Source of the DNA: a virus | Taxonomy: Duplodnaviria > Caudoviricetes | Strand: one strand, 5' to 3' | IMG/VR virus record: IMGVR_UViG_3300030406_002796 | Location: 1 to 52,397 of that record | DNA: 52,397 nt | Shown here: positions 4,204-46,507 of the stretch, piece after piece | Position numbering within the stretch: position 1 is the first letter of the stretch | Layout of the letters: each line of letters begins with the position of its first letter | Position numbers and translations under genes: made by a program | Notes under the pieces: generated by a model | The model's input: only the letters and a program-made list of their open reading frames with translations | Told to the model about the DNA's origin: nothing | The model's database searches: none

Positions 4204-4204
4204 A

Positions 4205-5392: not shown

Positions 5393-5414
5393 AACTATTT
5401 AATTTATTTATTAT

Positions 5415-5445: not shown

Positions 5446-5447
5446 AA

Positions 5448-5615: not shown

Positions 5616-5639
5616 AACTATTTATTTTATTTACATTAT

Positions 5640-5670
5640 TATTATCTTTGCTCTTTCGTATTTAGTTTGT
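5640..5670 (-). promoter_or_regulatory. putative phage early promoter, copy 5
   Basis: ACAAACTAAATAC-N10-AGATAATA. Confidence 0.7.
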
Positions 5671-5760
5671 AAAAGTATATTATTTGTTTATACATTTATT
5701 TTCGTTAGCGCATACTCCGCCACTTCTCTCATTGTATAAATGAAAGTTATAATTATAGTA

Positions 5761-5803
5761 TGACATTAGCAATATAAGTACTTAGAGTAACTAGCTATTG
5801 TCA
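5761..5803. repeat. intergenic inverted repeat
   Basis: TGACATTAGC-N23-GCTATTGTCA, 9/10 complementary. Confidence 0.45.
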
Positions 5804-5821
5804 CAGTATTTAGTAGAAATA

Positions 5822-6043
5822 TTACTCAGTAATTTTCATATTTCTACAAAATGCTGGCATACAATTAGTATTAGTATACGATTTATACTTTTGAAAACAA
5901 GGCATACTATCAAATCTTAGTTTGTGAAATTTATACACTTCATCGTGATTATACTTTACTACTTCACCTTTCTTGTTAGTGAACTCTACTACTACGTCTT
6001 TACCGATTAAAGACTTTCTTATTACAAATCTTTTTAATTTCAT
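5822..6043 (-). CDS. hypothetical early protein, paralog of 5159-5392
   Basis: See paralog; first gene of the minus-strand block. Confidence 0.8.
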   Translation of the reverse strand: MKLKRFVIRKSLIGKDVVVEFTNKKGEVVKYNHDEVYKFHKLRFDSMPCFQKYKSYTNTNCMPAFCRNMKITE

Positions 6044-6076
6044 ATTATTATATTTTATATTATTAAACTTCTATAT

Positions 6077-6107
6077 TATTATCTTTATTGTTTTGTATTT
6101 TGTTTGT
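6077..6107 (-). promoter_or_regulatory. putative phage early promoter, copy 6
   Basis: ACAAACAAAATAC-N10-AGATAATA. Confidence 0.7.
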
Positions 6108-6142
6108 TAGTAATTTAGTTTATTATTTAAATTAGTTATATA

Positions 6143-6173
6143 TATTATCTTATTATACTTGTAGTTACTATGT
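6143..6173 (-). promoter_or_regulatory. putative phage early promoter, copy 7 (degenerate)
   Basis: ACATAGTAACTAC-N10-AGATAATA. Confidence 0.5.
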
Positions 6174-6211
6174 ATATAGAATTATATAAATTCTAAACGC
6201 ATAAAATCGAT

Positions 6212-6268
6212 GGGGGCTGGGTGAAATAATGGGGTTCTGTGGAGGGGGTGGGGGTGAAGGGGAGGGGG
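6212..6268 (+). other. G-tract island (G-quadruplex potential) at strand switch
   Basis: Seven runs of 3-5 G within 57 nt in very AT-rich surroundings. Confidence 0.7.
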
Positions 6269-6326
6269 ATATACGCTATACTCCTATATTTATAATACGG
6301 AAGAAAAGTAAATATGCTAAACACTA

Positions 6327-15974: not shown

Positions 15975-16402
15975 TGTATAACCAAAACTTATTTAAGGTT
16001 GTAGAACCTATAAAAATAAATACCATTAAAAGACTTAACAAGTCTAAAAAATGGAAGTATGGTTATGATAAAGAAAATGATATAGTTATTATATCTAAAA
16101 CCGGTATGATCGGCGATATCATAGAAATACAAGGTTTACAAATAGCTTTACCTAAACAACCTAAAGAAATATATAGTTGTAGTAAAATAAAGTCAGAGCA
16201 AAAGTGGAAACAATTTCCAGCTAACTCAGCTTTTAAAAGAATTAAAACTGTATTTGATTGGCAAACATATCCAGATGATTTTAAACAAAGTCATTATGAA
16301 TATATAGACGAAGAGTTTAAAAGAAGAGAAGAAGGTTTTTGGTTTATGAATAATGGCAAGCCAACCTACAGGCACACACTATATGTATTTACAATGGAGT
16401 AA
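15974..16402 (+). CDS. terL: terminase large subunit, N-terminal fragment (frameshifted)
   Basis: ...YIDEEFKRREEGFWFMNNGKPTY continues logically into TGTHYMYLQW in another frame. Confidence 0.7.
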   Translation: MYNQNLFKVVEPIKINTIKRLNKSKKWKYGYDKENDIVIISKTGMIGDIIEIQGLQIALPKQPKEIYSCSKIKSEQKWKQFPANSAFKRIKTVFDWQTYPDDFKQSHYEYIDEEFKRREEGFWFMNNGKPTYRHTLYVFTME

Positions 16403-18203: not shown

Positions 18204-20578
18204 ACTCACAACACTCAATACATTTTCCATCACAAGCTGTTAGCGATTTAGAAAAACTAAGCGAAGATTATGGATTAAAGGTTGCAAGAGCAATACGACA
18301 TGAATGGTTTTCTGGTGCTACATCTAAGTACAATAGTTTTAAAAATAACTTTCACACACTAAGACTTTACGCAAGAGGGGAACAACCTATACAAAAGTAT
18401 AAAAATGAGTTGTCTATAAATGGTGATTTATCTTATTTAAATCTTGATTGGAAGCCAGTACCTATTGTACCTAAGTTTGTTGATATAGTTGTTAATGGTA
18501 TGGCTCAAAGAAATTATCAAATAAACTGTTATTCTCAAGATGAATATGGTGTAAGCAAAAGAACTGAATATATGGAGTCTTTGCTTAGAGATATGAGAGC
18601 TAAAAAGTTTGACAACATAATTCAACAGCAGTATGATATTGATATGAAAGAAAATGAGCCTGAAAAATTACCAGACTCAGAGGAAGAATTAAAGCTTCAT
18701 ATGCAGTTAGATTACAAGCAAGCTGTTGAGTTAGCTGAAGAACAGGCATTAAATGTTTTACTAGAAGGTAGTGATTATGATTTAGTAAGGCGTAGAGTTC
18801 TTTATGACTTAACTGTACTAGGTATCGGTGCTACTAAAACTACATTTGATTTTAGCAGCGGTGCTAAAGCGGAATATGTTGATCCAGCAAATTTAATATA
18901 TTCACACACAGACTCTCCTTATTTTGATGATGTATACTATGTTGGTGAGGTAAAAGAAATACCAATAAACGAACTAGTAAAACAATTTCCTAATTTATCT
19001 GAAAAAGAAATAAAAGAAGTAGCAGATAAACAATATAGACCTTTAGATCATACATCTAACTACGATAAAAATAAAGTAAACGTTCTTTACTTTAATTACA
19101 AAACACACATGAATAATGTTTATAAGTTAAAAAAGTTAGGAACTGGAGCTGAAAGAGTTATTGAAAAAGATGATACGTTTGATCCACCTGTTGAAAGCAT
19201 GGATGGTGAATTTAAAAAACTAGAAAGAGTTGTTGAGACTTTATACGAAGGTGTTTACTTAATAGGCTCAGATAAAATACTTAGTTGGAAAATGTGCGAT
19301 AACATGATGCGTACAGACTCTGATTTTAGTAGAGTAAAAATGAATTACCAAATTGTAGCGCCTAGGTTATATGAAGGTAGAATAGAAAGCTTAGTAAGTA
19401 GAATAACTAGCTTTGCAGATATGATACAGTTAACACATTTAAAGTTACAGCAAGTTATGGCGCGTATGGTTCCAGATGGTGTATACTTAGATGCTGATGG
19501 TTTAGCTGAAATAGATTTAGGTAACGGAACAAACTATAATCCGCAAGAAGCTTTAAATATGTTTTTTCAAACTGGTTCTGTTATTGGTAGAAGTTTTACA
19601 TCAGAGGGCGATCCTAATCCTGGTAAAGTTCCAATACAACAAATAAGCAATGGTGTTAATAGTGGTAAGTTACAAAGTTTAATTTCAACTTACAATTATT
19701 ACTTACAAATGATACGTGACGTAACCGGATTAAATGAAGCAAGAGATGCTAGCACACCTGATCGTAACGCATTAGTTGGTGTACAAAAAATGGCAGCTGC
19801 TAATTCTAATACAGCTACCAGACATATTTTACAATCAATGCTATTTATAACTGCTCAAGTTGCAGAGTGCTTATCATTACGTATAGCTGATATCATAGAG
19901 TACTCACCAACTAAAGATGCTTTTGTTAGAGCATTAGGCGCTCATAACGTCGCTACGTTAGATGAAATGAAAAACTTACATTTATATGACTTTGGTATAT
20001 TTATAGAGTTAATGCCAGATGATGAGGAAAAACAAATGTTAGAAAACAATATACAAGTTTCTTTACAGCAAGGTAGTATAGATTTAGATGATGCTATTGA
20101 TTTGCGTAATATAAGAAACGTAAAGTTAGCTAATCAAATGCTTAAAGTAAAAAGAAAAAAGAAACAAGAAAGAGATCAGCAAATGCAACAACAAAATATG
20201 CAAGCACAAGCTCAAGCTAACGCACAAGCACAACAAGCTGCAGCACAAGCTGAAATACAAAAAAATCAAGCAAAGATGCAGGCTGAAATGCAATTAGAAC
20301 AAACTAGAGGTCAATTAAAATCTCAGTACTTACAAGCTGAAGTTTTAGCTAAAAAACAACTAATGGCTTACGAGTTTGAATTAAACTCTAAAATGGAAGC
20401 TATGAAACAAAGAGTTTCTAATGAAAGAGAAGATGAAAGAGAAAACAGAAGAGATAATAGAGTAGATATGCAAGCTCAACATCAAATGAATATGATTCAA
20501 AGAAGAACTGAGGGTAATCCACTTAAAAGCTTTGAGTCATCAGGTAATGATACTATAACGGGGAGCGCTAATATGTAA
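18200..20578 (+). CDS. portal protein
   Basis: 792 aa after terL; LDWKPVPIVPKFVDIVVNG, IRDVTGLNEARD, Q-rich C-terminal coiled coil. Confidence 0.85.
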   Translation: MNSQHSIHFPSQAVSDLEKLSEDYGLKVARAIRHEWFSGATSKYNSFKNNFHTLRLYARGEQPIQKYKNELSINGDLSYLNLDWKPVPIVPKFVDIVVNGMAQRNYQINCYSQDEYGVSKRTEYMESLLRDMRAKKFDNIIQQQYDIDMKENEPEKLPDSEEELKLHMQLDYKQAVELAEEQALNVLLEGSDYDLVRRRVLYDLTVLGIGATKTTFDFSSGAKAEYVDPANLIYSHTDSPYFDDVYYVGEVKEIPINELVKQFPNLSEKEIKEVADKQYRPLDHTSNYDKNKVNVLYFNYKTHMNNVYKLKKLGTGAERVIEKDDTFDPPVESMDGEFKKLERVVETLYEGVYLIGSDKILSWKMCDNMMRTDSDFSRVKMNYQIVAPRLYEGRIESLVSRITSFADMIQLTHLKLQQVMARMVPDGVYLDADGLAEIDLGNGTNYNPQEALNMFFQTGSVIGRSFTSEGDPNPGKVPIQQISNGVNSGKLQSLISTYNYYLQMIRDVTGLNEARDASTPDRNALVGVQKMAAANSNTATRHILQSMLFITAQVAECLSLRIADIIEYSPTKDAFVRALGAHNVATLDEMKNLHLYDFGIFIELMPDDEEKQMLENNIQVSLQQGSIDLDDAIDLRNIRNVKLANQMLKVKRKKKQERDQQMQQQNMQAQAQANAQAQQAAAQAEIQKNQAKMQAEMQLEQTRGQLKSQYLQAEVLAKKQLMAYEFELNSKMEAMKQRVSNEREDERENRRDNRVDMQAQHQMNMIQRRTEGNPLKSFESSGNDTITGSANM

Positions 20579-26160: not shown

Positions 26161-29100
26161 ATGGGAGAAATTAAACATGGTTTTACGGCTGGCAAGATGA
26201 ATAAAGATCTTGATGAGCGATTAGTTCAGCAAGGTGAATATAGAGATGCCATGAATATTCAGGTAAGAACCACATCTGGTGATGGTGATGGTACAGGCAT
26301 TGGTGACTCTGGTGTAGTACAAAACTTACAAGGTAATATTGAAGTTGGCTCTGCTACTGGTGATGTGTTATCTTCGGCTTTTGCAGACTCTGAATTTACT
26401 TGTATAGGTTCTATTGCTAATGAAAAATCAGACTGTGCTTACTTTCTTTTTACTACAGATGTTTTACCTTTAATAACTACAGCAGAAGAATTAGTTAGAA
26501 TTGATACTATAATAGAACATAATGTTTCAAGTGGTGCTAACACACCAGTAGTTGTAGACAGATGGGCGTTAAGAACTTTAACGTCTAATGTATGGAGCTC
26601 AGCACCAACTGGTACTATTACTACATTTGAAGCTATATCTACTCTTCCAGCGAAAATAAGGGAAAACATGACTATCACTTTCTACGATAATGCTAATCCT
26701 ACTGATATTATAACTGTTAAAATAAAAAAGATAGACGGTAACACTATTCACTTATACGAACAAGCTACTGCTACTTGGAGTAACTTTACCCACGCAAGAT
26801 TTCAACACCCAAGAGTTTTAAACTTTTCTAAGAAAACTTTAATAAACGGTATTAATATAATTGATGATTTATTATTTTTTACCGATGGTAAGCATGAACC
26901 TAAAAAAATAAATATTACTAAATGTAAATCAGGCACTGACGCCAGTGGCGTTTTACATACTAAATTACTTATACAAGATCCTACTGTAGATCAATTAACA
27001 AATGCTGGTGATGCAGAACTAGTAGGATTAAATGCTGATTTGCTAGAAGAGCACGTTACCGTATTAAGACCTGCTCCTAAAACACCACCAACTATAGAGA
27101 CTGAAACTAGAGATGACGCTGAGTTACAGTTTAATTTAGATGATTTTTTCGTAGCCAACGGTGATGCAGAAATAAACGCTTGGGGTGAAGATCCATCTGC
27201 TGGCGATATGGTTTTAATAGGGACAAATTTTGATAACGACGGTAACGAAATTACTTACGGCTCTGTCACTCCTAATTTAAGTCAAGTACCTTTTCAAACA
27301 GGTGATATATTTACTGTTACACAAGAAGATGTAGAGGAAGGTTATCCTGAAGTAAATTTTAAAGTTAAATTTTTAGGATATTTTGCTGGATATCCAACCG
27401 CTGAACCTCAAGACGTACCAACAGATTTAATAAAAGTTCAAATATTAACAGAGCCAAACTACAATATAAGTAGTAGCATGCAATCTTGGTCGTTTAAACT
27501 TTCAAGCAAACAAGATTCTAAATTTGAATTAAAGTTTCCAAGGTTTGGTTACAGATATAAATACGATGACGGTGAATACTCTGCGTTTTCACCTTGGTCT
27601 GAATTAGCTTTTGACCCTGGTTTATTTGATTACGATACAGTTAAAGGTTATAACTTAGGTATGGTTAATACCATAAAGAAGATAATAGTAAAAGACTTTA
27701 TACCTTACTATACTGAAAGACCTTTAAATGTTGTAGAGGTTGACTTGTTATATAAGACTACTGAGTCACCAAATATATACACAGTCAAAACAATTAAAAA
27801 AATAAAAGATGGCGAGTGGGAATTATTTACTCCTGATGGTAATTTAGATAGTAATGACTCTACACAAAACTCTTTAGCTACCGGCGCGTTAGAAATAACT
27901 ACAGAGGCTATATACAAAACATTACCTTCAACTCAATTATTAAGAACTTTTGATAATGTACCTAGACGCGCTCTTGCTCAAGAAATAACAGGTAGTAGAA
28001 TATTGTATGGTAATTACACACAAGGGTTTGATATAAAATATCCAGTAGGTTTAGAACAAAATGTTACTAGTGAAACGGTTGAAGGGCAACCTAAAAAATC
28101 TCTTAAGTCTATAAGAGATTACAAAGTAGGTATGGTGTTTGGGGATATATATGGAAGAGAAACTCCAGTTATAGCATCTAATAAGATATCTGAAGTTGCT
28201 AACAATTTAGGTGGAACAGATTACTTAGCGCAAACAGATGATTTAACCGTACCAAAAGAGCTATGTGCAAAGTCTAATAGATTATCAGTAAAGCAAATAT
28301 GGGACAAACCTGGCTTACCTGCTGGAGACCCAACTGAGATGACATGGATGGAATACGTAAAATACTACGTGAAAGAAACATCTAATGAATATTATAATTT
28401 AGTTTTAGATAGATGGTATAAAGCTAAAGAAGAAAATAACATTTGGCTTTCTTTTCCTTCGGCCGATAGAAACAAAGTAGATCTTGAAACCTATTTGTAT
28501 TTAAAAAAGACACATGGTAACGACGAGGCTGTATTAGAAAAAGCTAGATATAAAATAATAGATATAAAAAACGAAGCTCCTGATTTTATAAAAACAGATA
28601 CAAGGAACTTTGGTTTAATAAATATAACAGGTGATCCAACCGCAGATGATTATGAATCCCCAATAGGCGCTGCTGATCCTCAAATAAACGAACCTTCTTT
28701 GCTAACTTCGCCTAGTAATACTAGAATAGCTGTTCCAGGTAATTCATGGAATGGTTTTTTAAATTTATATGGTGAAAATAAAAGAGGGCAATTGTTTGTA
28801 AGAGTAGTTGGTAGAACAGAAAACCCAGCTTCTGGCGCTGTGTTTAAACAATTAAATAGTGGAGACTTTAAAAAAGTTACACACCATTACGTTGATGGTG
28901 CTGGCGACGGTGTTGTTATATACAATGAGTCATTTTTACAATCAGCAGATATGGTTGAAAGATTTGCGCAAGCAAACTTTGATATAGATGGTAACTGTGC
29001 ATCTCAATGTTTACAGTATTTTTTTGAGTTCAAAGAAGAGGTTGTAGAAAACAAACCTGAGTTTGATGGTAGATTCTTTGTGTTAATAGAAAAAGACGAA

Positions 29101-32100
29101 ACCACTCAAGATCAAATAGAAATAACTTCTGATAATGAAGTACAATTTACTGAAATAGATTTAATAACTTTAAATTACGTAGATTCTCAACAATACAACC
29201 CAGCTCAGCAAGGTCCTTATTCTAGACTAGCTACTCCAACAGCTGGTGAACCTTCGGTATATAATGCTACCACTGGTTTGTTTAGAGAAGAAGATGTCGG
29301 TGGTGAGGTGCTAACTGATTTTACTCAACCTCATGAATGGTGGGGATTTGGTAGGTTTTCAAATAATCCTCAGCCATACCCTGGATATTGGAGCGCTTCA
29401 ACTACTAATGCTGTTACATCAAACTATCCTAGTGGAACTCTTGGCGACGCTGGAAATTGGCAATATGATTCTAAACAAGTTCATTTTTTTGCATTAGGTT
29501 GTAGAGCTGCTTCAGAAGGAATGAACGTAGATCTCGATGGTGATGATTACAGTGAGACGACTTATCATTTTGGTTATCAAAATATAACAGCTGGAGATGA
29601 CGGCCAAGCTACAGTTAAATACCCTGGCACAGCTAACTACGGTGGTATCACTTTAGACTACTGGGCCACTTATAAAAGATTTCATAGATCATCAGGTAAT
29701 TACAGCGAAACTGATGACAAGGGTTATGCTAATCCGCATTTAGTATTTTTAGATGGCGCTAGAGCTAATCAATATCAGCTAATGGAATTTGGAACTAACG
29801 AGACTGAAACTAACGAACAAGGTGTTCAGTCTATAAATGATTCAAATATAATATTAAGTAACGATAGTATAGCTGAAGGTGGTATATACCCTACTGATGG
29901 TAGTTACCCGTATGCTCCTTCTATATACAACTATAAGCCAACAGCGTTAGATCAAGGGCATGCCGACGAAGGTACTTTAGGTAGAATGGCTTTAAGTAAA
30001 ATAGGTGATTGGGGAGTTGGCGCAGGTGGTAGTGGCGCGCCCGCTATATATAATTATTTTGCTGGAGCTTCTGCAGCTGGTACTTACTTTTCTTTTAAAG
30101 ATGATAAATCTGATATGTCTGATCCAGACTTTCCAGATGGCAAACCTTATGTTTATAAAGTAATTACAGTTCACCCTGATGACGATGAAATTAGTTTACC
30201 GGTTCAAAAATCAAAACCACTAGCTAATAGAAACTTTGGTTATCAATTCAACCATGGTCAGTACGATGATAGCGACTCTGGTTGTGATAATAACGGTGGC
30301 GTTAACTTTGTAAGAAGTAGACAGTGGGCGCCAACTACTAGCGTTCCTAATGATGATGGCGCTTACTTTTTAAACTTTGGTGGAGAAAATGCTAATTGCG
30401 TAGATGAAGAAGGTAATGAAGTTAACTGTTTTGAAGGACTGTATAGTAACTTTGCTTTATCAGAAATATTCGACTTTGAAACGCTTGATAGTACTACACA
30501 TATTAGAACTGGTATGTATAGGAATACAGGGGGATTTTGCAATAATAGATTTCATAGAATATGCGGTCAATGTGACTCATCTGTTTCAACTGGTCCTTAT
30601 GAAAGTGGAACTGTATGTAGAAGAGAGTCTATAAGATTTGAATTTAGAAGAATAAACCCAGTAACTGGAGGTGTAACAAATGAAGGTATAGTACCAGATG
30701 AGTTTGATCCAAGAGGTTGGGCTAAGCACGATGGAACACATGGTGGTATAAGAATATCAATATTACAACCTGGTGTAGTAGCTGGTGGTAAAGAAGTTAA
30801 AATCGAAGAAGATAGAGCTGTTTGGGAAACAGAACCAAAAGAAGATGTTGGCTTAGATTTATATTATGAGGCTACGCACGCTATACCAATGAAATTAAAA
30901 AAAGGTAATGTATTATCTTACGCTCCTTTAAAATCTAAAGTTTTAGTAGAAAGAGTTGATCCAGCTACAGGCGTTACGGTTATAGATAATCTTAATGTAG
31001 CTAATTATAATGGTCAGCAGTATGTAGATGTTAGTGTAGGCGGGGCAGAGTATTTACAAGACGATGTTATAATAAAAGTTGTATCAAGAAGCGTCACGCT
31101 TATAGACTTGAATGGTAATGCGGACTTTGGGTTACACCAATACAATATAGGTATAGGTGATATACTTATATTCCAGCATAGCAGTGGCATGCAAACAAGA
31201 ACTGTAGTCGAAGACTATTATGTAGCACCAACTGGTGGTGAGAACTGTACATATGTTCCACAAACTACTTACACTACTACGTTTACTTACGACGCTGATG
31301 CTGATACTATATCACTAGCAAATGCTACAAATATTGTAACAGGTATGAACATTAGTGGTGAAGGTTTACCTGATGGTTTATTTGTATCAGGTAATCCTAA
31401 TGGAACTGAAATTCAAGTTGTTGGGTGGCCAACGTCAGCATTCTCTTGGTTTGGAGGTAATAGTAGCACACTTAGTAATATAGAATTTAAAAGCCCTACG
31501 GGCTATTATAAAGTAAATAAAGATGTTTACAAATACAAAGTTGATCTTGGCTGGCATAATTGTTATTCATTTGGTAATGGAGTTGAGTCTGATAGAATAA
31601 GAGATGATTTTAACGCACCAACAATCGATAATGGTGTTAAAGTTTCTACTACTATAGATGAGTATGGAGAAGAAAACAGAACAAGTGGTTTGATATTTTC
31701 AGGTTTATATAATACTACATCTGGAGTAAATGATTTAAATGAGTTTAATATGGGTGAAAAAATAATTAAGGATTTAAACCCGGACTATGGTACTATACAA
31801 GCTTTAAAAACTAGAGATACTAATGTTGTTGTTTTTTGTGAAGATAAAATATTAAAAGTAATTGCTAATAAAGAAGCTGTGTTTTTAGCAGATGGTAACC
31901 CTCAATTAACCGCTACTGATAGAGTGTTAGGTCAAGTGTCTACATTCTTAGGTGATTACGGTATATCAAGAAATCCAGAATCATTAGCTAAAGATAATTA
32001 TAGATTATATTGCACTGACTCACAAAGAGGCGCGGTACTTAGAATATCAATGGACGGTATAACACCTATATCAAATGTTGGTATGAGAACTTGGTTTAGA

Positions 32101-32814
32101 GAAAATATAGTAGGTTCTAGTGGGTATGGCACTCAAATGATAGGAACTTTTGATATGGTAAAAGGTGAATATAACTTAGGTATTAGTAACCAAACAATGG
32201 TAGCATTTAACGAAGGTTCTAAAGGTTGGGTTAGTTTTAGATCTTTTATACCAGATCAAGGAGTATCAGTTTCTGGAAAATACTTAACAACTAAAAGAGG
32301 TAAAATTTATAAACACCACGTGGACACTTTTGATCCAGATACTGGAGAAATAAATAATAGAAATTTATTTTATGGCGCTACTACTTTAGAGCCTGAAGCT
32401 GAATCTACAATTACCGTAATGTTTAATGATGTACCTGGCCAGGTTAAGTCTTTTAAAGCTATGAACTATGAAGGCACACAGGCTAGAGTAGATCAATTTA
32501 TATCTGAAACAATAGATGGTTTATCTTATACAGATGGCGAGTATTATAACTTAATTAATAAAAAAGGCTGGTGGGTAAGTGATGTCAATACAGATTTACA
32601 AGAAGGTAAAATAACTTGGTTTATTGATAAAGAAAACAAATGGTTTAATAATATTAGCGGTGTCGCTACTTCGCTTGAAAATTTAGATACTAGTGAGTTT
32701 ACAGTGCAAGGTATCGGTAGCCCTACATTAGTAACACTACCTCCTCCTACTGATGGGGATCCTACTAACACGTTTACTCTAACTATAAAGAATAAAACAA
32801 ATAATGATTTATAA
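26161..32814 (+). CDS. large tail protein (stabilization/nozzle-like)
   Basis: 2217 aa; GKMNKDLDERL...GEYRDAMNI N-terminus, CYSFGNGVESDRIRDDFN, YGISRNPES, KGWVSF. Confidence 0.7.
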   Translation: MGEIKHGFTAGKMNKDLDERLVQQGEYRDAMNIQVRTTSGDGDGTGIGDSGVVQNLQGNIEVGSATGDVLSSAFADSEFTCIGSIANEKSDCAYFLFTTDVLPLITTAEELVRIDTIIEHNVSSGANTPVVVDRWALRTLTSNVWSSAPTGTITTFEAISTLPAKIRENMTITFYDNANPTDIITVKIKKIDGNTIHLYEQATATWSNFTHARFQHPRVLNFSKKTLINGINIIDDLLFFTDGKHEPKKINITKCKSGTDASGVLHTKLLIQDPTVDQLTNAGDAELVGLNADLLEEHVTVLRPAPKTPPTIETETRDDAELQFNLDDFFVANGDAEINAWGEDPSAGDMVLIGTNFDNDGNEITYGSVTPNLSQVPFQTGDIFTVTQEDVEEGYPEVNFKVKFLGYFAGYPTAEPQDVPTDLIKVQILTEPNYNISSSMQSWSFKLSSKQDSKFELKFPRFGYRYKYDDGEYSAFSPWSELAFDPGLFDYDTVKGYNLGMVNTIKKIIVKDFIPYYTERPLNVVEVDLLYKTTESPNIYTVKTIKKIKDGEWELFTPDGNLDSNDSTQNSLATGALEITTEAIYKTLPSTQLLRTFDNVPRRALAQEITGSRILYGNYTQGFDIKYPVGLEQNVTSETVEGQPKKSLKSIRDYKVGMVFGDIYGRETPVIASNKISEVANNLGGTDYLAQTDDLTVPKELCAKSNRLSVKQIWDKPGLPAGDPTEMTWMEYVKYYVKETSNEYYNLVLDRWYKAKEENNIWLSFPSADRNKVDLETYLYLKKTHGNDEAVLEKARYKIIDIKNEAPDFIKTDTRNFGLINITGDPTADDYESPIGAADPQINEPSLLTSPSNTRIAVPGNSWNGFLNLYGENKRGQLFVRVVGRTENPASGAVFKQLNSGDFKKVTHHYVDGAGDGVVIYNESFLQSADMVERFAQANFDIDGNCASQCLQYFFEFKEEVVENKPEFDGRFFVLIEKDETTQDQIEITSDNEVQFTEIDLITLNYVDSQQYNPAQQGPYSRLATPTAGEPSVYNATTGLFREEDVGGEVLTDFTQPHEWWGFGRFSNNPQPYPGYWSASTTNAVTSNYPSGTLGDAGNWQYDSKQVHFFALGCRAASEGMNVDLDGDDYSETTYHFGYQNITAGDDGQATVKYPGTANYGGITLDYWATYKRFHRSSGNYSETDDKGYANPHLVFLDGARANQYQLMEFGTNETETNEQGVQSINDSNIILSNDSIAEGGIYPTDGSYPYAPSIYNYKPTALDQGHADEGTLGRMALSKIGDWGVGAGGSGAPAIYNYFAGASAAGTYFSFKDDKSDMSDPDFPDGKPYVYKVITVHPDDDEISLPVQKSKPLANRNFGYQFNHGQYDDSDSGCDNNGGVNFVRSRQWAPTTSVPNDDGAYFLNFGGENANCVDEEGNEVNCFEGLYSNFALSEIFDFETLDSTTHIRTGMYRNTGGFCNNRFHRICGQCDSSVSTGPYESGTVCRRESIRFEFRRINPVTGGVTNEGIVPDEFDPRGWAKHDGTHGGIRISILQPGVVAGGKEVKIEEDRAVWETEPKEDVGLDLYYEATHAIPMKLKKGNVLSYAPLKSKVLVERVDPATGVTVIDNLNVANYNGQQYVDVSVGGAEYLQDDVIIKVVSRSVTLIDLNGNADFGLHQYNIGIGDILIFQHSSGMQTRTVVEDYYVAPTGGENCTYVPQTTYTTTFTYDADADTISLANATNIVTGMNISGEGLPDGLFVSGNPNGTEIQVVGWPTSAFSWFGGNSSTLSNIEFKSPTGYYKVNKDVYKYKVDLGWHNCYSFGNGVESDRIRDDFNAPTIDNGVKVSTTIDEYGEENRTSGLIFSGLYNTTSGVNDLNEFNMGEKIIKDLNPDYGTIQALKTRDTNVVVFCEDKILKVIANKEAVFLADGNPQLTATDRVLGQVSTFLGDYGISRNPESLAKDNYRLYCTDSQRGAVLRISMDGITPISNVGMRTWFRENIVGSSGYGTQMIGTFDMVKGEYNLGISNQTMVAFNEGSKGWVSFRSFIPDQGVSVSGKYLTTKRGKIYKHHVDTFDPDTGEINNRNLFYGATTLEPEAESTITVMFNDVPGQVKSFKAMNYEGTQARVDQFISETIDGLSYTDGEYYNLINKKGWWVSDVNTDLQEGKITWFIDKENKWFNNISGVATSLENLDTSEFTVQGIGSPTLVTLPPPTDGDPTNTFTLTIKNKTNNDL

Positions 32815-38473: not shown

Positions 38474-41400
38474 ATGAAAGAATATATATTAAATGGAAAG
38501 ACTGTAAAAGTCTCTTCAGAAAACGAACAAGCATTTATTAAAGCAAATCCTAATGCTAAAATAAAGGAAACAAGCTGGTGGCGAGGAGAAGAAGGTTGGA
38601 TTCCAGATGAACTAGAGTTCTGGAAAAGAAAAGAGGAGTCGCCGGGAAAGTCAATAGGGGCAAGTCAGCCCCAAGAAAATCAAACAGAAAATACGGATTC
38701 ATCTTCGGCAACTGGTTTGTTGGGGTTTGTAAAATATAAACTTGGTGAAAAGTTTGTTAAGGTAGCTCCTGCTAATACTAAAGCATTTGAAAAGGAAAAT
38801 CCAGAAGCTACGCAAGCAACCTTTCAAAAAGGAACTATATTAGATAAAATAACAGATGATAAAGATACTATACCACAAGATAAAGGTTATCTTTCAGAAT
38901 TAGTATTATCATTAAAGCAAGGTAAAAGAGGTTTAACTACTGATGGCGCCTTTGATTTAATGCGTCATGGTAAAAATATAACTGACGAAAAGTTACAAGA
39001 GTGGGTTAGAGATGTAGAAAAATATGGTGGCGTGCCACAAACTCAAGCTCAAATAGAATATAATAGAAAACTAGAAGAGAATGGTGGTGGAATATGGGGT
39101 CACATAAAAGTAATGAGTGATCCTAGAAATACGATGTTAAGTTTAGAGTGGGTACCTCAACAAATACTAGGTTCTCTATCTACTATGGCTACGTCTCTTT
39201 ATGGATCTGATGAAGTAAGAGTTTCTGCGGCTGGTGGTGCAGGAGCGGGTGCTGTGGCTACAAGAAGTCCTTATGGCGGTGTAGCTGGTGCTTATAGTGC
39301 TGGTATAGGTGCTATGGAAGCAGGTCTAGAATTTACTGAGTTATTAAAAGAAGAGTTAGCTGAAAAGGGTGTAGATCCAAATGATTATGATAATGGTTTT
39401 ACAGCTGACAATATTAGATCTTTGATATTAGAAGATCCAGCTTCTTTAGAAAAAATTAGAAAAAAAGCTCTAGCAAGAGGTATGTCTATGGCGGTAGTAG
39501 AAGCTATGACGTTTGGCGTAGCGAGAGGTACTGGTAAATTAGTGTTAGATAAAACAATGTCTAAAAGTAAAACAGCGCTTGCTGTTACTGGAACAGAGAT
39601 GGTTGGTGGTGCTGCTAGTGAAGCCGCTGGACAATTTGCGTCTGGAGGTACAGCAGAGCCTGGCGGGTTTAGTGTTCAAAAAGGTATTGAAAACTTAGAT
39701 AGTGGAGATATTTTTATTGAAGGTATATTAGAAGGGCCAACAGCTGTTTTAAATACTGACATATTATTTTCTGGATCAAGAGGTGAAAAGTATACTATTA
39801 ATGGAAGTGAGGTAACTAAAAAAAGAGTTGTTAGCATACTTCAAGATAATGATCTTACAACTCAAGAAAAAGCAAAAATTCTTTCTAATATAGAAATAAC
39901 TAACGATAAAACTCTACAGTCTTATTTAGATAAAGCTTTAAGTGATATAAATATAGAAATGAATATAGACGCTAGAGTTGTTGATAGAGCTGATAGAAAA
40001 CGTTTGGTTGAGCTAGAAAATCAAAGAAGAAAAGCAGAAGCTGATACTAAAAAAACTGGAGTGTTTTCTGTTTCAGATGCAGATAAAAAACTAAATGATA
40101 TAAATTTAGCTATAGAAGAAATACTAGCTCCATATCAAAATCAAATAGATAAAAATCTTTCAGATGTACAAATACAAAGAGATCAAGCAGCTGAGTTTAA
40201 TCAGAACATGTCCGAAAGAATTTTTAAAAGTAATTTAGAGTTTGCTAAAAAACATAGTGCCTTGTATGGTTTAAATGTAAATGATACTTTAACTAGAGAG
40301 GAAATACGTAAAGCCTATGGAGATGAGGCTGCTGATGCAGATGGATTTATTGATGGTGATCAAATAATTATAAATAGCGAGGTAGCTCAGTTTACAGATG
40401 CTGTTAATGTTGGTAACCACGAGTTGTTGCATGGTATACTTAGAAAAGAAATGAAGAACAACCCAAACCAATTTGCCAATATAAGGCAAGAGTTGTCTCA
40501 ACAAATAGGTAATCAATGGCAGTATGTAGAAAACAGAGTTAAAGAAGCTGGATATACAGAGCAGTATATGATAGAAAATCCTGATGAGTGGATTACGTTA
40601 ACTTCAGATGCTATAGCTAACGGTCAGATAACCTATAGTGAAAGTGTGTTCCAACCATTAATGGATTTTATTTTACCTATACTTAGGGCTGCTGGATTTA
40701 AGAAAATAAAGTTTGATAGTGGTAAAGATGTATTTGAGTTCTTAAAAGAATACAATAGAAGTATACACAAGGGCTCGCTGAGTAGTGGTATAGTTAGTGC
40801 TACACAAGGAGTAACGCAAGTTGAAGGAGGACCTAAGTTTGCTAAGTCTAATTTAGCTGGTATGTTAGATCGATTTGATGGTAACACTAGACGTATGATA
40901 AATCAAACTGTTGCTAGACAAGCTAATGGCGAACCAGTTGCGTTTAGAGAAGATAAATTTGGTAATTATATATCTAGTGTAGATTCAGAATTTGGACAAG
41001 AAGTAATGCCTATAGTTGAAAGTATAACAAAAAGATTATTTGATCCTATACCTACTAACATAGCAGATCAAGCCTCTGTATCAAGAGGTAGTTATCAATC
41101 AGATTTAGTAAATGAAGCTGCTACGTTAGTTAACAACGAGTATAATGGTAGACAACCACTTGATCAATTTGTTAGTAACAGATTAAATTTAAGAGCTCAA
41201 AGTTTAGCTCGTAGATTAGGTATAAAATCTGTAGAAGAAAGTTCTAAAGAAACAAGAATAAATCAAGGAGACTCTCAGCTACAAGTACAAGATAGAGACC
41301 AAACAGATACAGCGTTTGAAGAAAAAGATCTTTCACCACAACAGCAACGTAAAGATTTAAAAGAAGATACTAGACAAATAAACTCAGGTGAGTTTGTTAA

Positions 41401-44400
41401 AGATATATATATGTTTGACAACGAAACAACCATTGAGCCTTTGCGACAAACATTAAACGAAATTAATTACGACGCTAGCGGTTCTTACGAGCAGTTAGCT
41501 GCTGATATGGTTAGTCAACAAAACCCAGCAGAAAGTTCTAAAAACAAAGTTAAACCTACTGGTGTTTTATATCCCGCTCATAAATTACTATCAGAGTCTT
41601 ATTGGCAAGTTAATCCTAATTCTATAATAGCTAAACCTCAAACTCTAACGGTTCCAGAGTCTAATAATATTAGAACAAAAATAATAGAAGCTATAAAAAA
41701 TACTAGAACAAAAAAAGGTTTATCACCGGTAAAAAGAGTTGTAAGCGCTATATTACCAAAAACTAATTTAAATCCTAACACATTAACTTCTATAGGGCTA
41801 AGCACTAAAACATTAGAAGTATTTTATTTAGACAGAAATATAGAAACTGGTGAAACAACTAGACCTAAAAATTTAAAAGCTCAAGCGCTTAATATAAATA
41901 ACATGGCTGACTCTGATATACTAATGAACATTGGTATTACAAATGAGTTAACATTAATGCCTCATGATAGAAAATTTAATCCTATATTAAAAAGTTTTGT
42001 AAAGCAAGGTAATGCTTTAGTTATAAATCAAGAGATAAGAAGCTTAATAAAAGATCAAGCCGCTAACATTGGTGTTGGTAGACCAGATATATTATTTAGT
42101 AAGAGTGTTAAAAATTCTTATAGAAAAAGTCCTGCTGATTTAGCTAATGATTATAATATAAAATTAGTACCTGGTTCTTCTAAAACAAGAGCCAAAAACA
42201 GTATGTACAACGAAACCGAAACTTGGGCGCAGGCTAGAGACAGAGTGCTTAGAGAGTATTTAACCGAGTACCCTCAGTACAGAGTATTAATGCAAAAAGG
42301 TCTATGTGCTAGTAGTAAAAGAACTATGTATACTAGCGTTAAAGAGTTTAATGAAGCTGCTGGCCCTATGCCACCAGGTGTTGATATTATTAACGCTCTT
42401 AAAACTGAATATAATGTTAAAAGAAGGTTTACTCCAAAAGCTTTTAAAAAATTTAAAACAGAAAAATTTAAACAAGGTGAGGCAAAAAAATTAGAAACTT
42501 TGAAAGATTTTTTTGTGTCAATACAAGAATTTTCAGAGTCTAAAAAAATTGATGGAAAAGTAAGCCCTGATATGTTTTTGTTTTTAGAAATGTTAAGAGA
42601 TAGTTCGACTGGTGGCCAGGCTCATATTATTAGAATATTAGCTCCAGTTAAATTCTATACAGTTGACCAAAGAACTAGAAAACCAATATACGATAAAGAG
42701 GTTGTAGAAGAACATACTGATCCTCAAAATCAAATAGGTACAGCTTTAATGGACGCTGCTATAAACGGAAATGTAAACGAAGTGTTTGATGTTATAGGTG
42801 GTTCTTATATGCAAGGTTCTTTATTAGAAACGTCTGACAACTTGATAGCTAACAAAGAGAAAAACCCTAACAAAAGAGATTTAACTAGAGATATGCCAGA
42901 TTTTTATTTTGATGAGGTAATACCTAGAATAAAAAGTGGTGAACTAAAGTTACCAGATGGTATGGCATCTGTAGTTAGGATGGCGATACAAGGTGTAAAC
43001 TTAAATGAGCTAATGCTTATTGATTCTAATCAAACTATAGCAGAGTTTTTTAATGTTGGTATTGATACTAAAAATATGACTGATGCTCAAATAGAATATT
43101 TAATACCTTATCAAAATGACTTAATAATAAAACAGTTGACTACTAAAACGATGACCAAAACAAAGGCTCGTAATTCTATAAATAAAATATCTAAAACAGT
43201 TTACAAAAAAAATGCTAAACAACTACAATCTAGTTTAGATTCAAGTAAAGCTATTATTAATACATATAAATATAGTAAGTCTGGTAAAACAAGAGGTATG
43301 TCAACATTTGATTTTGATGATACATTAGGTTTTACTAAGTCTGGTGTTAGAGCTAATATACCTAACAACGATGGTCTACCTAAACCAGAGCGTAAAGTTA
43401 TATTCTTAGCTGGTGGTGCTGGTAGTGGTAAAGGTAACGTAATAAGAAAACTTAATTTAGAAAAAGACGGTTTTAAAATTGTAAACTCAGATATATCTTT
43501 AGAGTGGTTAAAGAAAAACTCAGGACTACCTGCTGATATGCGAGACTTAACTAAAGAACAAAGAAGCACATTAGGTAAGCTAGGAGCTCAAGCTAGAAAA
43601 ATAGCTAGAGGTAAAATGATGAAGTACCAGGGTAACGCAAATGGAGTTGTTGTCGATGGTACTGGTGGATCTGTTAGAACAATGCAGAAGTTAGTAGATG
43701 AATTTAAATCTAAGGGATATGATGTTAGCATGATATTTGTAGATACATCATTAGATGTAGCCTTACAACGTAACAGGGCTAGACAAGAAAGATCGTTGTT
43801 AGATAAAATAGTTATACGTAATCATGAAGCTGTTCAAGGAAATAAATCTTCTTTTAAAGAAATGTTTGGCGATAGATTTATGGAAGTTAATACAGATAAC
43901 TTAACGCAACAAAGCCCCATGCCGACTGATTTAGTTAACAATGTTACTGACTTTGTTTCTGGTTATGAAAGACGTAGATTAGATGCTGAAGAGTTTGCCG
44001 CAGAAGGAGATGCTATATTAGAACAAGGTGGTGAGTTTGATTTTTCAGAGTTTAATGATGTTGTTGACGGAACGCCAGGTCCTTTACTAGAAAAAGCTAG
44101 ACAAAGGGCAGCTAAGTATGGAACGAAAGACATGTTTGTTTTAACTGCTAGACCTCAAGCTGCCGCACCAGCGATAAAACAATTTTTAAAATCACAAGGT
44201 CTAGATATACCATTAAAAAATATAACTGGCTTAGCTAACAGCTCTGGTAATGCTAAGGCTCAATGGATGTTAGGTAAATTTGCAGAAGGCTATAACGATA
44301 TGTACTTTGTAGATGATGCTTTACAAAATGTTGAAGCCGTTAAACAGGTGTTAGATCAATTAGATATTAAGTCAGATGTTGTGCAAGCTAAAAGAAAGTT

Positions 44401-46507
44401 TAGTAAATCAGCTAGTCAAAACTTTAATACAATACTAGAAGAGTCTCAAGGGACTAACAGGAACAGAACGTTCTCTTATCAAGAAGCTAAACGTTTAGGT
44501 AAAAACAAAGGTTGGTGGAGAATATTTGTACCACCTTCGGCTGAAGACTATAAAGGTTTATTGTATAGATTTTTAGGTACAGGTCGTCAAGGTGAGTTAC
44601 ACATGAAGTATTTAAAAATTAAACTGCTAGACCCGTTTGCTAAAGGTATAAGATCGTGGAATATATATAAGCAAGAGATGGTAAATGAATATGCTCAATT
44701 AAAAAAGAATCTACCTAACGTTGCTAAAGGTTTAACCGCTAAAGTAGGTGAGACTGGTTTTACTACAGATGACGCAATAAGAGTTTACTTGTGGGATAAA
44801 AACGGATTTAATATTCCAGGTATTGATGATGCTACAAAACAAGAGCTAATTGATTTTGTAAACAGATACGGTAACGTTAAAGCTTTTGCTGATACTTTAA
44901 GTAGAATAACTAAGACACAAGAAGGTTATGTTGCACCAACTGAAAACTGGTCACTTGGTAGTATATCAACTGATTTAAATAATGTCGTTAACAAAGTTGG
45001 TAGAAAACAATTTTTAGCAGAGTACTTAGCTAATTCAGAAGCTATATTTACTCCTGAAAATATGAATAAGATAGAGGCTTTATATGGTACTACATTTAGA
45101 GAAGCTTTAGAGAATATAATGTATCGTATGGAAAACGGTGGTAACAGAAGAGTTAGTACTGATAGAAATGTAAATAGAATGCTTAATTGGATTAACGGTT
45201 CTATTGGCGCTATTATGTTTTTTAACATGAGATCTGCATTACTACAAACTATATCTACGGTTAACTTTATAAACTGGAGTGATAATAATATATTTAAAGC
45301 ATCAGCCGCATTTGCTAATCAACCTCAATTTTGGACGGACTTTGCTACACTATTTAACTCACCACAATTAAAACAAAGAAGAAAAGGTATACAAATAGAT
45401 GTATCTGCTTCAGAATTATCTAGAGCTTTTTCTGATGGTAAAGGCACACCTCAATCTGTTATTAGCTGGTTATTAGAAAAAGGTTTCACCCCAACACAAG
45501 TTGCGGATAGCTTTGCTATTTCTTTTGGTGGCGCTAGTTTTTATAGAAACAGACTTAACAAATATAAAAAACAAGGATTTTCAGAGCAACAAGCTAATGA
45601 AAAGGCTATGTTAGATTTTCAAGAGATAGCTGAAGAAACACAACAGTCTTCAAGAGAAGATTTAATATCACAGCAACAGGCTAGTGTATTAGGTAGATTA
45701 ATACTAGCGTTTCAAAACGTTACAATGCAATACACTCGTTTAACAAAGAAAGCTTTATCTGATTTAATAAATGGTAGGGGGGATATGAAAACAAATATAT
45801 CTAAGATACTATATTATGGTATGGTACAAAATTTAATATTTGCTAGCTTACAATCGGCCTTGGCATTTGTTATTTGGGGAGACGATCAAGAAGACATAGA
45901 AGATAAAACTCTTAGAACAGCTAATAGCGCTTTAGATTCTTTTTTACGTGGTACTGGTATATACGGAGCAATAGTATCTACTGTAAAAAATACTATTATA
46001 CAGGCTGAAAAACAAAAGAAGAAAAGCTGGGGTAGAGAAGATGGTAGAACTTTATTAGAGTTAACTAATATATCTCCACCTATAGGTAGTAAGTTAAGAA
46101 AAATATACAACGCTATTAAAACAGAGCAGTATAACAAAGGTGTATCTGAAGAATTAGGACTTAGAATAGAAAACCCAACATTACATAAATGGGCTAGTAT
46201 AATTGAAGCAACTACAAATATACCAACACAAAGATTAATTAAGAAAGCTAATAACTTAGAAGAAGCTATAACAGGCAATCACTTAACATGGCAACGAATA
46301 GCCTTAGGTCTTGGCTGGAATAGATGGGATATTGGTGTTAAGGACGAAGAGCTTGAAGCTGCTAAAAGTGCCGCTAAGTCTAAAAATAAAAGTAATAAGA
46401 AAAGCAATAAGTCTAGTAGTAAAAGATGCTCTGCTATAAAGAAAAGTGGTGGAAGATGTAAGAACAATACTAGAAATAAAAGCGGTAGATGTTATGCTCA
46501 CCAATAA
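38474..46507 (+). CDS. giant polyvalent virion protein (zincin, sigma-like, HAD phosphatase with nested P-loop kinase, C-terminal Zn finger)
   Basis: HELLH (aa 649), FDFDDTL (aa ~1613), GGAGSGKG (aa ~1647), LTAR, FVDD, terminal C-x9-C-x10-C-x2-H. Confidence 0.75.
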   Translation: MKEYILNGKTVKVSSENEQAFIKANPNAKIKETSWWRGEEGWIPDELEFWKRKEESPGKSIGASQPQENQTENTDSSSATGLLGFVKYKLGEKFVKVAPANTKAFEKENPEATQATFQKGTILDKITDDKDTIPQDKGYLSELVLSLKQGKRGLTTDGAFDLMRHGKNITDEKLQEWVRDVEKYGGVPQTQAQIEYNRKLEENGGGIWGHIKVMSDPRNTMLSLEWVPQQILGSLSTMATSLYGSDEVRVSAAGGAGAGAVATRSPYGGVAGAYSAGIGAMEAGLEFTELLKEELAEKGVDPNDYDNGFTADNIRSLILEDPASLEKIRKKALARGMSMAVVEAMTFGVARGTGKLVLDKTMSKSKTALAVTGTEMVGGAASEAAGQFASGGTAEPGGFSVQKGIENLDSGDIFIEGILEGPTAVLNTDILFSGSRGEKYTINGSEVTKKRVVSILQDNDLTTQEKAKILSNIEITNDKTLQSYLDKALSDINIEMNIDARVVDRADRKRLVELENQRRKAEADTKKTGVFSVSDADKKLNDINLAIEEILAPYQNQIDKNLSDVQIQRDQAAEFNQNMSERIFKSNLEFAKKHSALYGLNVNDTLTREEIRKAYGDEAADADGFIDGDQIIINSEVAQFTDAVNVGNHELLHGILRKEMKNNPNQFANIRQELSQQIGNQWQYVENRVKEAGYTEQYMIENPDEWITLTSDAIANGQITYSESVFQPLMDFILPILRAAGFKKIKFDSGKDVFEFLKEYNRSIHKGSLSSGIVSATQGVTQVEGGPKFAKSNLAGMLDRFDGNTRRMINQTVARQANGEPVAFREDKFGNYISSVDSEFGQEVMPIVESITKRLFDPIPTNIADQASVSRGSYQSDLVNEAATLVNNEYNGRQPLDQFVSNRLNLRAQSLARRLGIKSVEESSKETRINQGDSQLQVQDRDQTDTAFEEKDLSPQQQRKDLKEDTRQINSGEFVKDIYMFDNETTIEPLRQTLNEINYDASGSYEQLAADMVSQQNPAESSKNKVKPTGVLYPAHKLLSESYWQVNPNSIIAKPQTLTVPESNNIRTKIIEAIKNTRTKKGLSPVKRVVSAILPKTNLNPNTLTSIGLSTKTLEVFYLDRNIETGETTRPKNLKAQALNINNMADSDILMNIGITNELTLMPHDRKFNPILKSFVKQGNALVINQEIRSLIKDQAANIGVGRPDILFSKSVKNSYRKSPADLANDYNIKLVPGSSKTRAKNSMYNETETWAQARDRVLREYLTEYPQYRVLMQKGLCASSKRTMYTSVKEFNEAAGPMPPGVDIINALKTEYNVKRRFTPKAFKKFKTEKFKQGEAKKLETLKDFFVSIQEFSESKKIDGKVSPDMFLFLEMLRDSSTGGQAHIIRILAPVKFYTVDQRTRKPIYDKEVVEEHTDPQNQIGTALMDAAINGNVNEVFDVIGGSYMQGSLLETSDNLIANKEKNPNKRDLTRDMPDFYFDEVIPRIKSGELKLPDGMASVVRMAIQGVNLNELMLIDSNQTIAEFFNVGIDTKNMTDAQIEYLIPYQNDLIIKQLTTKTMTKTKARNSINKISKTVYKKNAKQLQSSLDSSKAIINTYKYSKSGKTRGMSTFDFDDTLGFTKSGVRANIPNNDGLPKPERKVIFLAGGAGSGKGNVIRKLNLEKDGFKIVNSDISLEWLKKNSGLPADMRDLTKEQRSTLGKLGAQARKIARGKMMKYQGNANGVVVDGTGGSVRTMQKLVDEFKSKGYDVSMIFVDTSLDVALQRNRARQERSLLDKIVIRNHEAVQGNKSSFKEMFGDRFMEVNTDNLTQQSPMPTDLVNNVTDFVSGYERRRLDAEEFAAEGDAILEQGGEFDFSEFNDVVDGTPGPLLEKARQRAAKYGTKDMFVLTARPQAAAPAIKQFLKSQGLDIPLKNITGLANSSGNAKAQWMLGKFAEGYNDMYFVDDALQNVEAVKQVLDQLDIKSDVVQAKRKFSKSASQNFNTILEESQGTNRNRTFSYQEAKRLGKNKGWWRIFVPPSAEDYKGLLYRFLGTGRQGELHMKYLKIKLLDPFAKGIRSWNIYKQEMVNEYAQLKKNLPNVAKGLTAKVGETGFTTDDAIRVYLWDKNGFNIPGIDDATKQELIDFVNRYGNVKAFADTLSRITKTQEGYVAPTENWSLGSISTDLNNVVNKVGRKQFLAEYLANSEAIFTPENMNKIEALYGTTFREALENIMYRMENGGNRRVSTDRNVNRMLNWINGSIGAIMFFNMRSALLQTISTVNFINWSDNNIFKASAAFANQPQFWTDFATLFNSPQLKQRRKGIQIDVSASELSRAFSDGKGTPQSVISWLLEKGFTPTQVADSFAISFGGASFYRNRLNKYKKQGFSEQQANEKAMLDFQEIAEETQQSSREDLISQQQASVLGRLILAFQNVTMQYTRLTKKALSDLINGRGDMKTNISKILYYGMVQNLIFASLQSALAFVIWGDDQEDIEDKTLRTANSALDSFLRGTGIYGAIVSTVKNTIIQAEKQKKKSWGREDGRTLLELTNISPPIGSKLRKIYNAIKTEQYNKGVSEELGLRIENPTLHKWASIIEATTNIPTQRLIKKANNLEEAITGNHLTWQRIALGLGWNRWDIGVKDEELEAAKSAAKSKNKSNKKSNKSSSKRCSAIKKSGGRCKNNTRNKSGRCYAHQ

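Follow-up and report, generated by a model that had tools for sequence, protein, structure and literature searches.

Combining fold prediction with language-model searches on a 2,677-amino-acid (aa) protein, P0001, of an uncultured marine phage, we recovered a cryptic sigma-2-like domain that was missed by Pfam, by hhalign and by a hidden Markov model (HMM) search of 1.84 billion proteins. P0001 is encoded by a giant open reading frame (ORF) at positions 38474-46507 (plus strand, taken from the ORF list and its translation) at the end of the structural module of IMG/VR virus record IMGVR_UViG_3300030406_002796, which was analysed in its entirety and is hereafter called the window (52,397 bp, 33.7% G+C, completeness estimate 93%). 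The domain, a helical module of ~135 residues resembling domain 2 of sigma factors, occupies aa ~794-930 (40853-41263, plus strand) and very probably has a genuine sigma-2 fold. As to its function, we lean, with slightly less than even confidence, towards a module or effector that docks on RNA polymerase and contributes to its take-over, in preference to a true early sigma factor. The original prediction, made from the DNA letters, had described a sigma-like factor redirecting the host RNA polymerase; the fold and the predicted docking on the polymerase clamp helices agree with it, but the proposed role in early-promoter specificity is not supported.

Structures were predicted with AlphaFold2 without templates and from family-only alignments, for aa 600-975 (model 1) and aa 786-940 (model 2). 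Model 1 contained two confident domains separated by a disordered linker, with blocks of predicted local distance difference test scores (pLDDT) of 75-92 over aa 790-919, and model 2 reproduced the same helical domain as a single unit (pLDDT 83.5, predicted template-modelling score (pTM) 0.77). Aligned with VIA-align against 48,161 PDB representatives, model 2 gave a best-50 list comprising 21 sigma-titled rows, 6 probable sigma chains of polymerase or initiation complexes, 3 uncertain and 16 unrelated rows, plus four (AlgU, WhiG, BldN and CnrH) which we take from their names to be sigma factors. The best matches were SigB, pro-sigma-K (second-best), AlgU, SigE, RpoS and sigma-70, the first clearly unrelated fold appearing not before rank 23 for model 1 and rank 27 for model 2. 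Alignments covered 75-105 of the ~133 ordered residues, residues 377-446 of sigma-70 (1sig) falling on aa 838-915. All Z values remained below the caution line of 8, the support coming from the consistency of the list and from no single score.

The model of aa 786-940 thus resembles sigma domain 2, and the sigma region-2 likeness claimed in the original prediction holds at the level of fold and of language-model neighbours but not at that of sequence profiles. Foldseek searches with model 2 also ranked sigma factors first, although all with E-values above 0.2 and none significant: against the PDB, a WhiG complex (rank 1, E 0.81) and the sigma factor ShbA (rank 2, E 0.91), and against BFVD, an 'RNA polymerase sigma-like factor' of Klebsiella phage KPV15 (rank 1, E 0.28), followed by phage sigma factors at ranks 4 and 9 (E 0.28-0.67 over the three). 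With the two-domain model, Foldseek returned nothing useful from the PDB (best E 1.0), and the sigma signal emerged only with VIA-align and with the single-domain model. Among the 30 nearest named clusters of the ESM-Atlas, an independent method, 23 carried PF04542 and 7 were named 'sigma factor', all of them small and mostly viral proteins with scores of 0.94-0.95.

The segment in which a sigma region 2 had been read by eye exists as quoted, at aa 843-916 of P0001 (41000-41221, plus strand), opening with EVMPIVESITKRLF (aa 843-856) and closing with SLARRLG (aa 910-916). The interval first given for it, 40990-41225, exceeds it by ~10 nt and is shifted by one base from the reading frame, its literal translation containing stops, and the first FAKS site, placed just before it, was correctly recognised (aa 789-792) but stands 51 residues upstream. 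In the models, the helices of this segment correspond to sigma regions 2.1, 2.2 and 2.3/2.4. The region-2.2-like helix (aa 871-889; 41084-41140, plus strand) carries the predicted contacts with the clamp helices of the polymerase beta' subunit (D877, N880, E881, A883, T884, N887 and N888), while the region-2.3/2.4-like helix (aa 896-916; 41159-41221, plus strand) bears R903 and R907, the most conserved polar residues of the family together with E889 and Q894 in the preceding loop. The segment is the best-conserved stretch of the helical domain and of the surrounding region, with ten residues (L855, I859, E889, Q894, F899, R903, R907, L911, A912 and G916) shared by all of 14 aligned homologues and showing 72-95% conservation among 161 family proteins. 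An acidic residue, D or E, stands at position 881 in 109 sequences of the family.

Modelled together with residues 230-420 of the Flavobacterium johnsoniae RpoC (RPOC_FLAJ1), as had originally been suggested as a check, the domain was predicted to dock through its region-2.2-like helix on the host beta' clamp helices. This complex reached an ipSAE interface score of 0.63 (runs of 0.62, 0.66 and 0.63) against 0.00 for the best of three controls, the mark applied having been reached by 58 of 80 solved complexes and by 2 of 110 mismatched pairs in calibration. Runs shared at least 96% of their contacts, with a partner pLDDT of at least 84. The predicted interface brings beta' residues 291-319, which show a helical-hairpin-like pattern, against the N-terminal helices of the domain and its residues 92, 95-96, 98-99 and 102-103, corresponding to aa 877, 880-881, 883-884 and 887-888 of P0001. 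In the excerpted text of a study of T4 gp55, a factor with a sigma-2 domain only, acidic residues of the equivalent helix (H3) bind the clamp helices (PMC7892883).

The genetic context of the domain is that of a multidomain, polyvalent-type protein. Upstream lies a helical, metallopeptidase-like domain with an HExxH motif (aa ~600-766; 40271-40771, plus strand; pLDDT ~64-86 in model 1), in which HELLH occupies aa 649-653 (40418-40432) and HExLH is present in the family consensus, with no Pfam peptidase match to this domain of P0001. A low-confidence linker (aa 767-793; 40772-40852, plus strand; pLDDT below 50 for model residues 168-191) separates the two domains and contains KFAKS (aa 788-792; 40835-40849), the first of three K/L-F-[AS]-K-S sites found at domain borders, the others being at aa 1207-1211 (42092-42106) and 1975-1979 (44396-44410). 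These sites are kept in the five closest homologues, the first of them in the linker predicted as disordered, but only 17 of 143 family proteins have an F[AS]K[STK] near the point where the sigma-like domain starts (background 2%), making the three candidate processing sites that are not general across the wider family.

Linkage with the peptidase-like domain is tighter. In 115 of 129 family proteins, an HExxH motif precedes the sigma-like domain by no more than 330 aa, and in 92 of the 129 a match to a peptidase-like HMM ends less than 150 aa before it. By contrast, the second half of the proposed aa 790-1207 cassette (aa 956-1212) was found in only 19 of the 161 domain-bearing proteins, so that this cassette does not stand as a conserved unit. 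Neither Pfam nor a PDB profile search revealed a sigma region 4 within it, and hhalign of aa 956-1212 against phage and Escherichia coli sigmas gave probabilities of at most 0.3%. The family consists almost exclusively of giant proteins, 114 of the 161 reaching at least 1,500 aa, and of 1.84 billion representative proteins searched with its profile, 146 matched (127 at E<=1e-10), nearly all giant with the domain in mid-protein. The 18 large homologues compared (1,770-3,500 aa, from marine metagenomes) resemble P0001 in a modular, mosaic manner, and in distant homologues the similarity to this region spans ~aa 610-960, crossing the FAKS site.

These observations lead us to favour a docking effector, the domain being accessory, peptidase-linked, absent from relatives that share the same promoters, and often found beside a normal phage sigma factor. 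P0001 would be packaged in the virion and enter the cell with the phage DNA, where the sigma-2-like module, possibly released by cleavage, would dock on the host beta' clamp helices through its region-2.2-like helix. Once docked, it may act as an accessory to take-over by competing with the host sigma, by tethering the incoming protein or DNA to RNA polymerase, or by aiming the neighbouring peptidase at the polymerase, with a putative effect on transcription; it is probably not an obligatory specificity factor for the conserved early promoters. Sigma-2 is a universal handle on the bacterial RNA polymerase, and a cryptic copy of it, predicted here for marine metagenome proteins that form at least 146 clusters at 50% identity, would offer phages a testable route to seize or silence host transcription before any phage gene expression. 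If its role is limited to mimicking sigma, whether to block the latter or to direct a peptidase, the domain would represent a new type of RNA polymerase-directed phage effector.

Several results weigh against a sigma-derived docking module, starting with the sequence searches. The similarity seen by eye was not significant in any of them: Pfam found no Sigma70 match (r2, r3 or r4) at E<=1 in the whole of P0001, Sigma70_r2 matched none of 14 family members at E<=10, a six-frame PF04542 search of the record gave nothing at E<=0.01, PHROGs assigned no sigma family to P0001 or its family, and NCBIfam gave P0001 no sigma match. PDB sequence searches were likewise free of sigma factors, both with phmmer and with the family profile at E<=1, the latter giving two irrelevant rows only. 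Compared with an alignment of six E. coli sigmas, the domain obtained hhalign probabilities of 0.1-0.4%, while as a positive control a two-sequence alignment of extracytoplasmic function (ECF) sigmas found the other four E. coli sigmas (groups 1-3) at 86%. None of the 146 proteins of the large profile search was recognisably a sigma factor, the ten smallest carrying no sigma Pfam domain. The closest approach came from an hhalign comparison of the domain, represented by an alignment of 161 sequences, with nine free-standing sigmas from phages related to this one; it was colinear over 65 columns and in the structurally correct register with their region 2 (DP.K..L..F.S.R), but only marginal, its score of 17.9 being equalled or exceeded by 4 of 150 column shuffles. 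The ESM-Atlas neighbours share only 112-124 of 256 features with the domain, and one third of shuffled proteins also obtain ten neighbours of one family.

Other adverse points concern the predicted contact, the conservation pattern and delivery. The complex was computed with a stand-in host RpoC and an alignment made by ourselves, and the identification of beta' 291-319 as clamp helices follows a presumed numbering. Since sigma/beta' complexes have been abundantly solved, its score may come from model memory and express sigma likeness only. On average, conservation is lower at the predicted contact residues than in the remainder of the domain (information x occupancy of 1.51 versus 2.35 over aa 839-916), which is the opposite of the pattern in sigma region 2.2. 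No region-2.3 aromatic cluster is evident in the sequence or in the family consensus, the helix keeping instead F899, R903 and R907, nor is a DLIQEG-type region 2.2 motif conserved across the family consensus. Packaging and delivery with the DNA are suggested by gene position and architecture: Maribacter phage Panino and Cellulophaga phage phi38:1 each have a giant gene at the equivalent position, the one in phi38:1 bearing the annotation 'structural protein', but neither phi38:1 gp101 nor the 1,829-aa protein of Panino has detectable sequence similarity to P0001.

Among the alternatives, the one that survives best, although we regard it as rather unlikely, holds that the sigma-2-like fold, perhaps derived from a sigma gene of a phage, has lost its contact with RNA polymerase and may serve as a substrate-like pro-domain, inhibitor or regulator of the HExxH domain, or in binding nucleic acid or capsid during packaging. 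The tight linkage to the HExxH domain would fit such a role, as would a most conserved surface that differs from the predicted beta' contact and the lack of a region 2.2 motif across the family. The second-best structural match, pro-sigma-K, moreover comes from a complex with the metalloprotease SpoIVFB, so that the pairing of a protease with a sigma-2 domain is a known theme. Yet the clamp-helix complex passed where its controls scored 0.00, the acidic residue at position 881 is kept in 109 sequences, and model 1 shows no confident arrangement of the HExxH and sigma-like domains relative to each other (pTM 0.44, disordered linker).

The hypothesis of the original prediction, that the domain is a true virion-delivered sigma factor, cleaved at the F[AS]KS sites and directing the host core polymerase to non-host early promoters before any phage protein synthesis, much as gp55 reads an 8-bp element, appears improbable to us. 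It builds on a promoter-like motif, AAATAC-N10-AGATAATA, that is real and occurs in eight copies where seven had been claimed (799-6166, minus strand; six exact and two with one mismatch; 5' ends at 822, 1618, 2387, 3963, 5438, 5663, 6100 and 6166), all within a cluster of ~23 leftward small ORFs (1-6,300, minus strand). At up to two mismatches the window holds 14 matches, against 2.75 +/- 1.56 in shuffled sequences, none of 100 shuffles reaching 14. The conserved consensus is longer than the motif first quoted, T[AG]CAAA..AAATAC[GA]A-N8-..GATAATA, roughly 35 nt. At three window sites an ATG follows the motif by 5-7 nt, which suggests leaderless or near-leaderless early mRNAs. The Bacteroidota promoter consensus combines a -7 element (TAnnTTTG) with a -33 element (TTTG); on the coding strand of the 6.3-kb region, the former has only two matches, none with a -33 TTTG.

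The presence of these conserved motif copies before the leftward small genes speaks for the hypothesis, as does a point of gene order. Relatives of the phage encode a free-standing sigma factor of ~250 aa, with sigma-2 and, as sigma-4, a C-terminal helix-turn-helix (HTH), which scores above the PF04542 cut-off and at 95.8% in hhalign against E. coli sigmas, but its gene sits at the far end of the same motif-bearing leftward cluster, and it therefore cannot be the first to read the cluster promoters. The sigma-2 fold, the predicted clamp-helix docking and the precedent of gp55 as a sigma-2-only specificity factor also speak for a true initiation factor, and E889, Q894, R903 and R907 would lie, judging from the aligned ranges, where sigma region 2.3/2.4 meets DNA.

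The distribution of the motif, however, makes a functional tie to the domain doubtful. The motif is shared across the phage group (G002, G006, G014, G021, G022, G024, G026, G036, G042 and G052), always on one strand and in one region, including three relatives that are complete or near-complete and in which no sigma-2-like domain was found in either genomes or giant proteins: G006 (100% complete; 7+1 sites), G002 (5+1) and G014 (3+1). The idea that the motif tracks the domain was accordingly rejected. Also adverse are the accessory nature of the domain within a mosaic protein, its linkage to the peptidase-like domain and not to the rest of the cassette, the scarcity of F[AS]K[STK] sites near it, the lack of an evident aromatic melting motif, and the failure to find a sigma-4 or any other upstream-element reader for AAATAC.

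The free-standing sigma gene and the domain are found together in 7 of 12 near-complete domain-bearing records, a count drawn from those 46 of 79 further domain-bearing contigs that reach at least 33 kb. This coexistence indicates that the two are not interchangeable. Replacement of the sigma gene by the domain had looked right in the first five near-complete genomes, of which one carried the domain and the other four the sigma gene, but failed on this wider set. Likewise rejected was the possibility that domain-less relatives carry a diverged version of the P0007 type, this version being present only in G005 and G020 among ten records searched. When nine phage sigmas were compared with the window by tblastn, no match had an E-value below 0.19. 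This apparent lack is probably an artefact, since the record stops inside an ATP-dependent DNA ligase gene (1-543, minus strand; KLDGVR motif; DNA ligase in NCBIfam, E 1.2e-8) and three relatives (G024, G022 and G006) have their sigma gene 1.6-2.2 kb past the ligase; the phage's own sigma gene is probably located just beyond the record end. G036 ends like the window record, and in G030 the region is present with no detectable sigma. In G002, the sigma ORF (L013, G002:C1:8607-8837) has 113 aa, against ~250 aa in eight relatives, and ends right after region 2.4 with sigma-2 only; this short ORF could result from splitting or truncation of the gene, or could encode a natural sigma-2-only factor.

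The broader proposition, that widespread giant and probably virion-borne proteins deliver a cryptic sigma-2 module which, freed by the neighbouring metallopeptidase, would act as a true injected initiation factor at early promoters, seems to us of low probability. It would nevertheless be consequential: such a factor would constitute a third way to start early transcription, beside the host holoenzyme and a packaged RNA polymerase, and the classification of early transcription strategies would change if the domain truly initiates transcription.

Very improbable, finally, is a generic helical-bundle resemblance unrelated to sigma in origin and function, which would account for the Foldseek E-values above 0.2 and the negative sequence methods but not for sigma factors filling the top of both VIA-align lists, with no unrelated fold before ranks 23 and 27, and heading both Foldseek lists, for ESM-Atlas neighbours that are sigma only, for alignments over most of the ordered residues, or for the correct register of the weak alignment to the phage group's own sigma.

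Compared with known systems, the docking module that we favour shares with sigma-70 domain 2 (regions 1.2-2.4, PF04542) the predicted order and similar lengths of its helices and the predicted clamp docking. It differs by the lack of profile-level similarity, by an extra 10-residue loop or mini-helix between the 2.1- and 2.2-like helices, and by being embedded in a 2,677-aa protein instead of free-standing, with no sigma-3 or sigma-4 detected. T4 gp55, a free protein of 185 aa, is likewise a phage protein with sigma-2 only and without sigma-4, but it is made after infection, carries a helix-loop-helix and a tail binding the sliding clamp, and serves late promoters with gp33 and gp45; none of these partners or motifs came up in the present phage, in which no search was aimed at them. 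The gp55 study, in its excerpted text, describes recognition of a -10-like element alone (PMC7892883). As for the free-standing sigmas of the phage group, their region 2 provides the best, if marginal, sequence alignment of the domain, but they match PF04542 and E. coli sigmas and carry an HTH, whereas the domain of the giant protein matches neither.

P0001 also fits the polyvalent type of protein known from phages and conjugative elements (Iyer et al. 2017), being a giant multidomain product of a portal-terminase phage in which an HExxH domain neighbours effector modules and a kinase; the combination of HExxH, sigma-2-like, kinase and HAD-like elements and the mosaic homologues are all features of this type. 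No Pfam polyvalent or LPD model matches P0001, the nearest being a near-threshold LPD14 match in its relative P0021 (25.3 bits versus a cut-off of 27). Packaging, delivery and self-processing by such peptidases are proposed in the portion consulted of the polyvalent-protein paper (PMC5512222), whose main text does not contain the word 'sigma'; a sigma-like module would represent a novel type of cargo for these proteins. A full-text literature search returned no title or abstract opening that describes a virion-delivered sigma factor, and the part of PMC7824862 available mentions only free-standing phage sigmas. The virion RNA polymerases of N4-like and crAss-like phages follow a similar logic, with transcription machinery delivered within a giant virion protein, and that of N4 also has a metallopeptidase domain according to the same portion of Iyer et al. 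(PMC5512222). They differ in that no polymerase catalytic domain was found in P0001 by Pfam, PHROGs, NCBIfam or PDB profile search; since P0001 would deliver at most a polymerase-binding module, synthesis would still be carried out by the host RNA polymerase.

Beyond the sigma-like domain, the sole Pfam finding in the whole of P0001 is a kinase at aa 1639-1774 (AAA_33/Zeta_toxin; AAA_33 E 7.4e-10). It is surrounded by motifs of haloacid dehalogenase (HAD) phosphatase type (FDFDDTL, VLTARPQ and YFVDDA; aa 1612-1949, 43307-44320), a layout resembling that of a polynucleotide kinase-phosphatase in which the kinase interrupts the HAD domain, and a weak PHROGs match to 'polynucleotide kinase' was also obtained. 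Homologues P0003 and P0004 keep the HAD part and lack the kinase (gap at query 1598-1832). At the extreme C-terminus (aa 2652-2677; 46427-46504), a Cys-x9-Cys-x10-Cys-x2-His arrangement kept in the family consensus could be a zinc knuckle closing the strongly conserved C-terminal 700 aa. When P0001 was run by tblastn against 50,697 phage records, only its kinase part gave matches (9 records); tblastn of aa 143-561 and megablast found nothing. Among related phages, the giant gene that closes the structural module shows strong mosaicism: that of G006 (L193, 4801-16170) encodes 3,789 aa of which only the last ~1,570 resemble P0001, and that of Panino (L012, 35399-40888), encoding 1,829 aa, is annotated 'tRNA methyltransferase'.

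The remainder of the window is organised as a rightward array containing GroEL/GroES-like genes, the terminase large subunit (16353-18203), the portal (18200-20578) and several 'virion structural protein' PHROGs including a 2,217-aa protein, the structural genes being followed by the 2,677-aa ORF and then by an endolysin-like gene. Because the portal and capsid-like proteins resemble those of podoviruses of Flavobacteriia (35-50% identity with Flavobacterium phage elemo, Cellulophaga phage phi38:1 and Maribacter phage Panino), a marine flavobacterium is the most likely host. IMG/VR contains at least 598 relatives of the terminase, the best 80 at 79-93% identity, and the phage group is an abundant, uncultured and marine one. 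The 2,217-aa protein (26161-32814) matches phrog_14478 (E 8e-113) and, below threshold, the C-terminal domain of the crAss-virus muzzle protein (E 0.0069), a hint that podoviruses of this group may have a crAss-like tail element. Lastly, the intergenic region from which the leftward cluster and the rightward genes diverge contains six runs of four to five G in 57 nt (6212-6268; 54% G), including four of the six runs of at least five G in the window, in a genome of 34% G+C; this stretch could be a G-quadruplex, an origin or a packaging signal.

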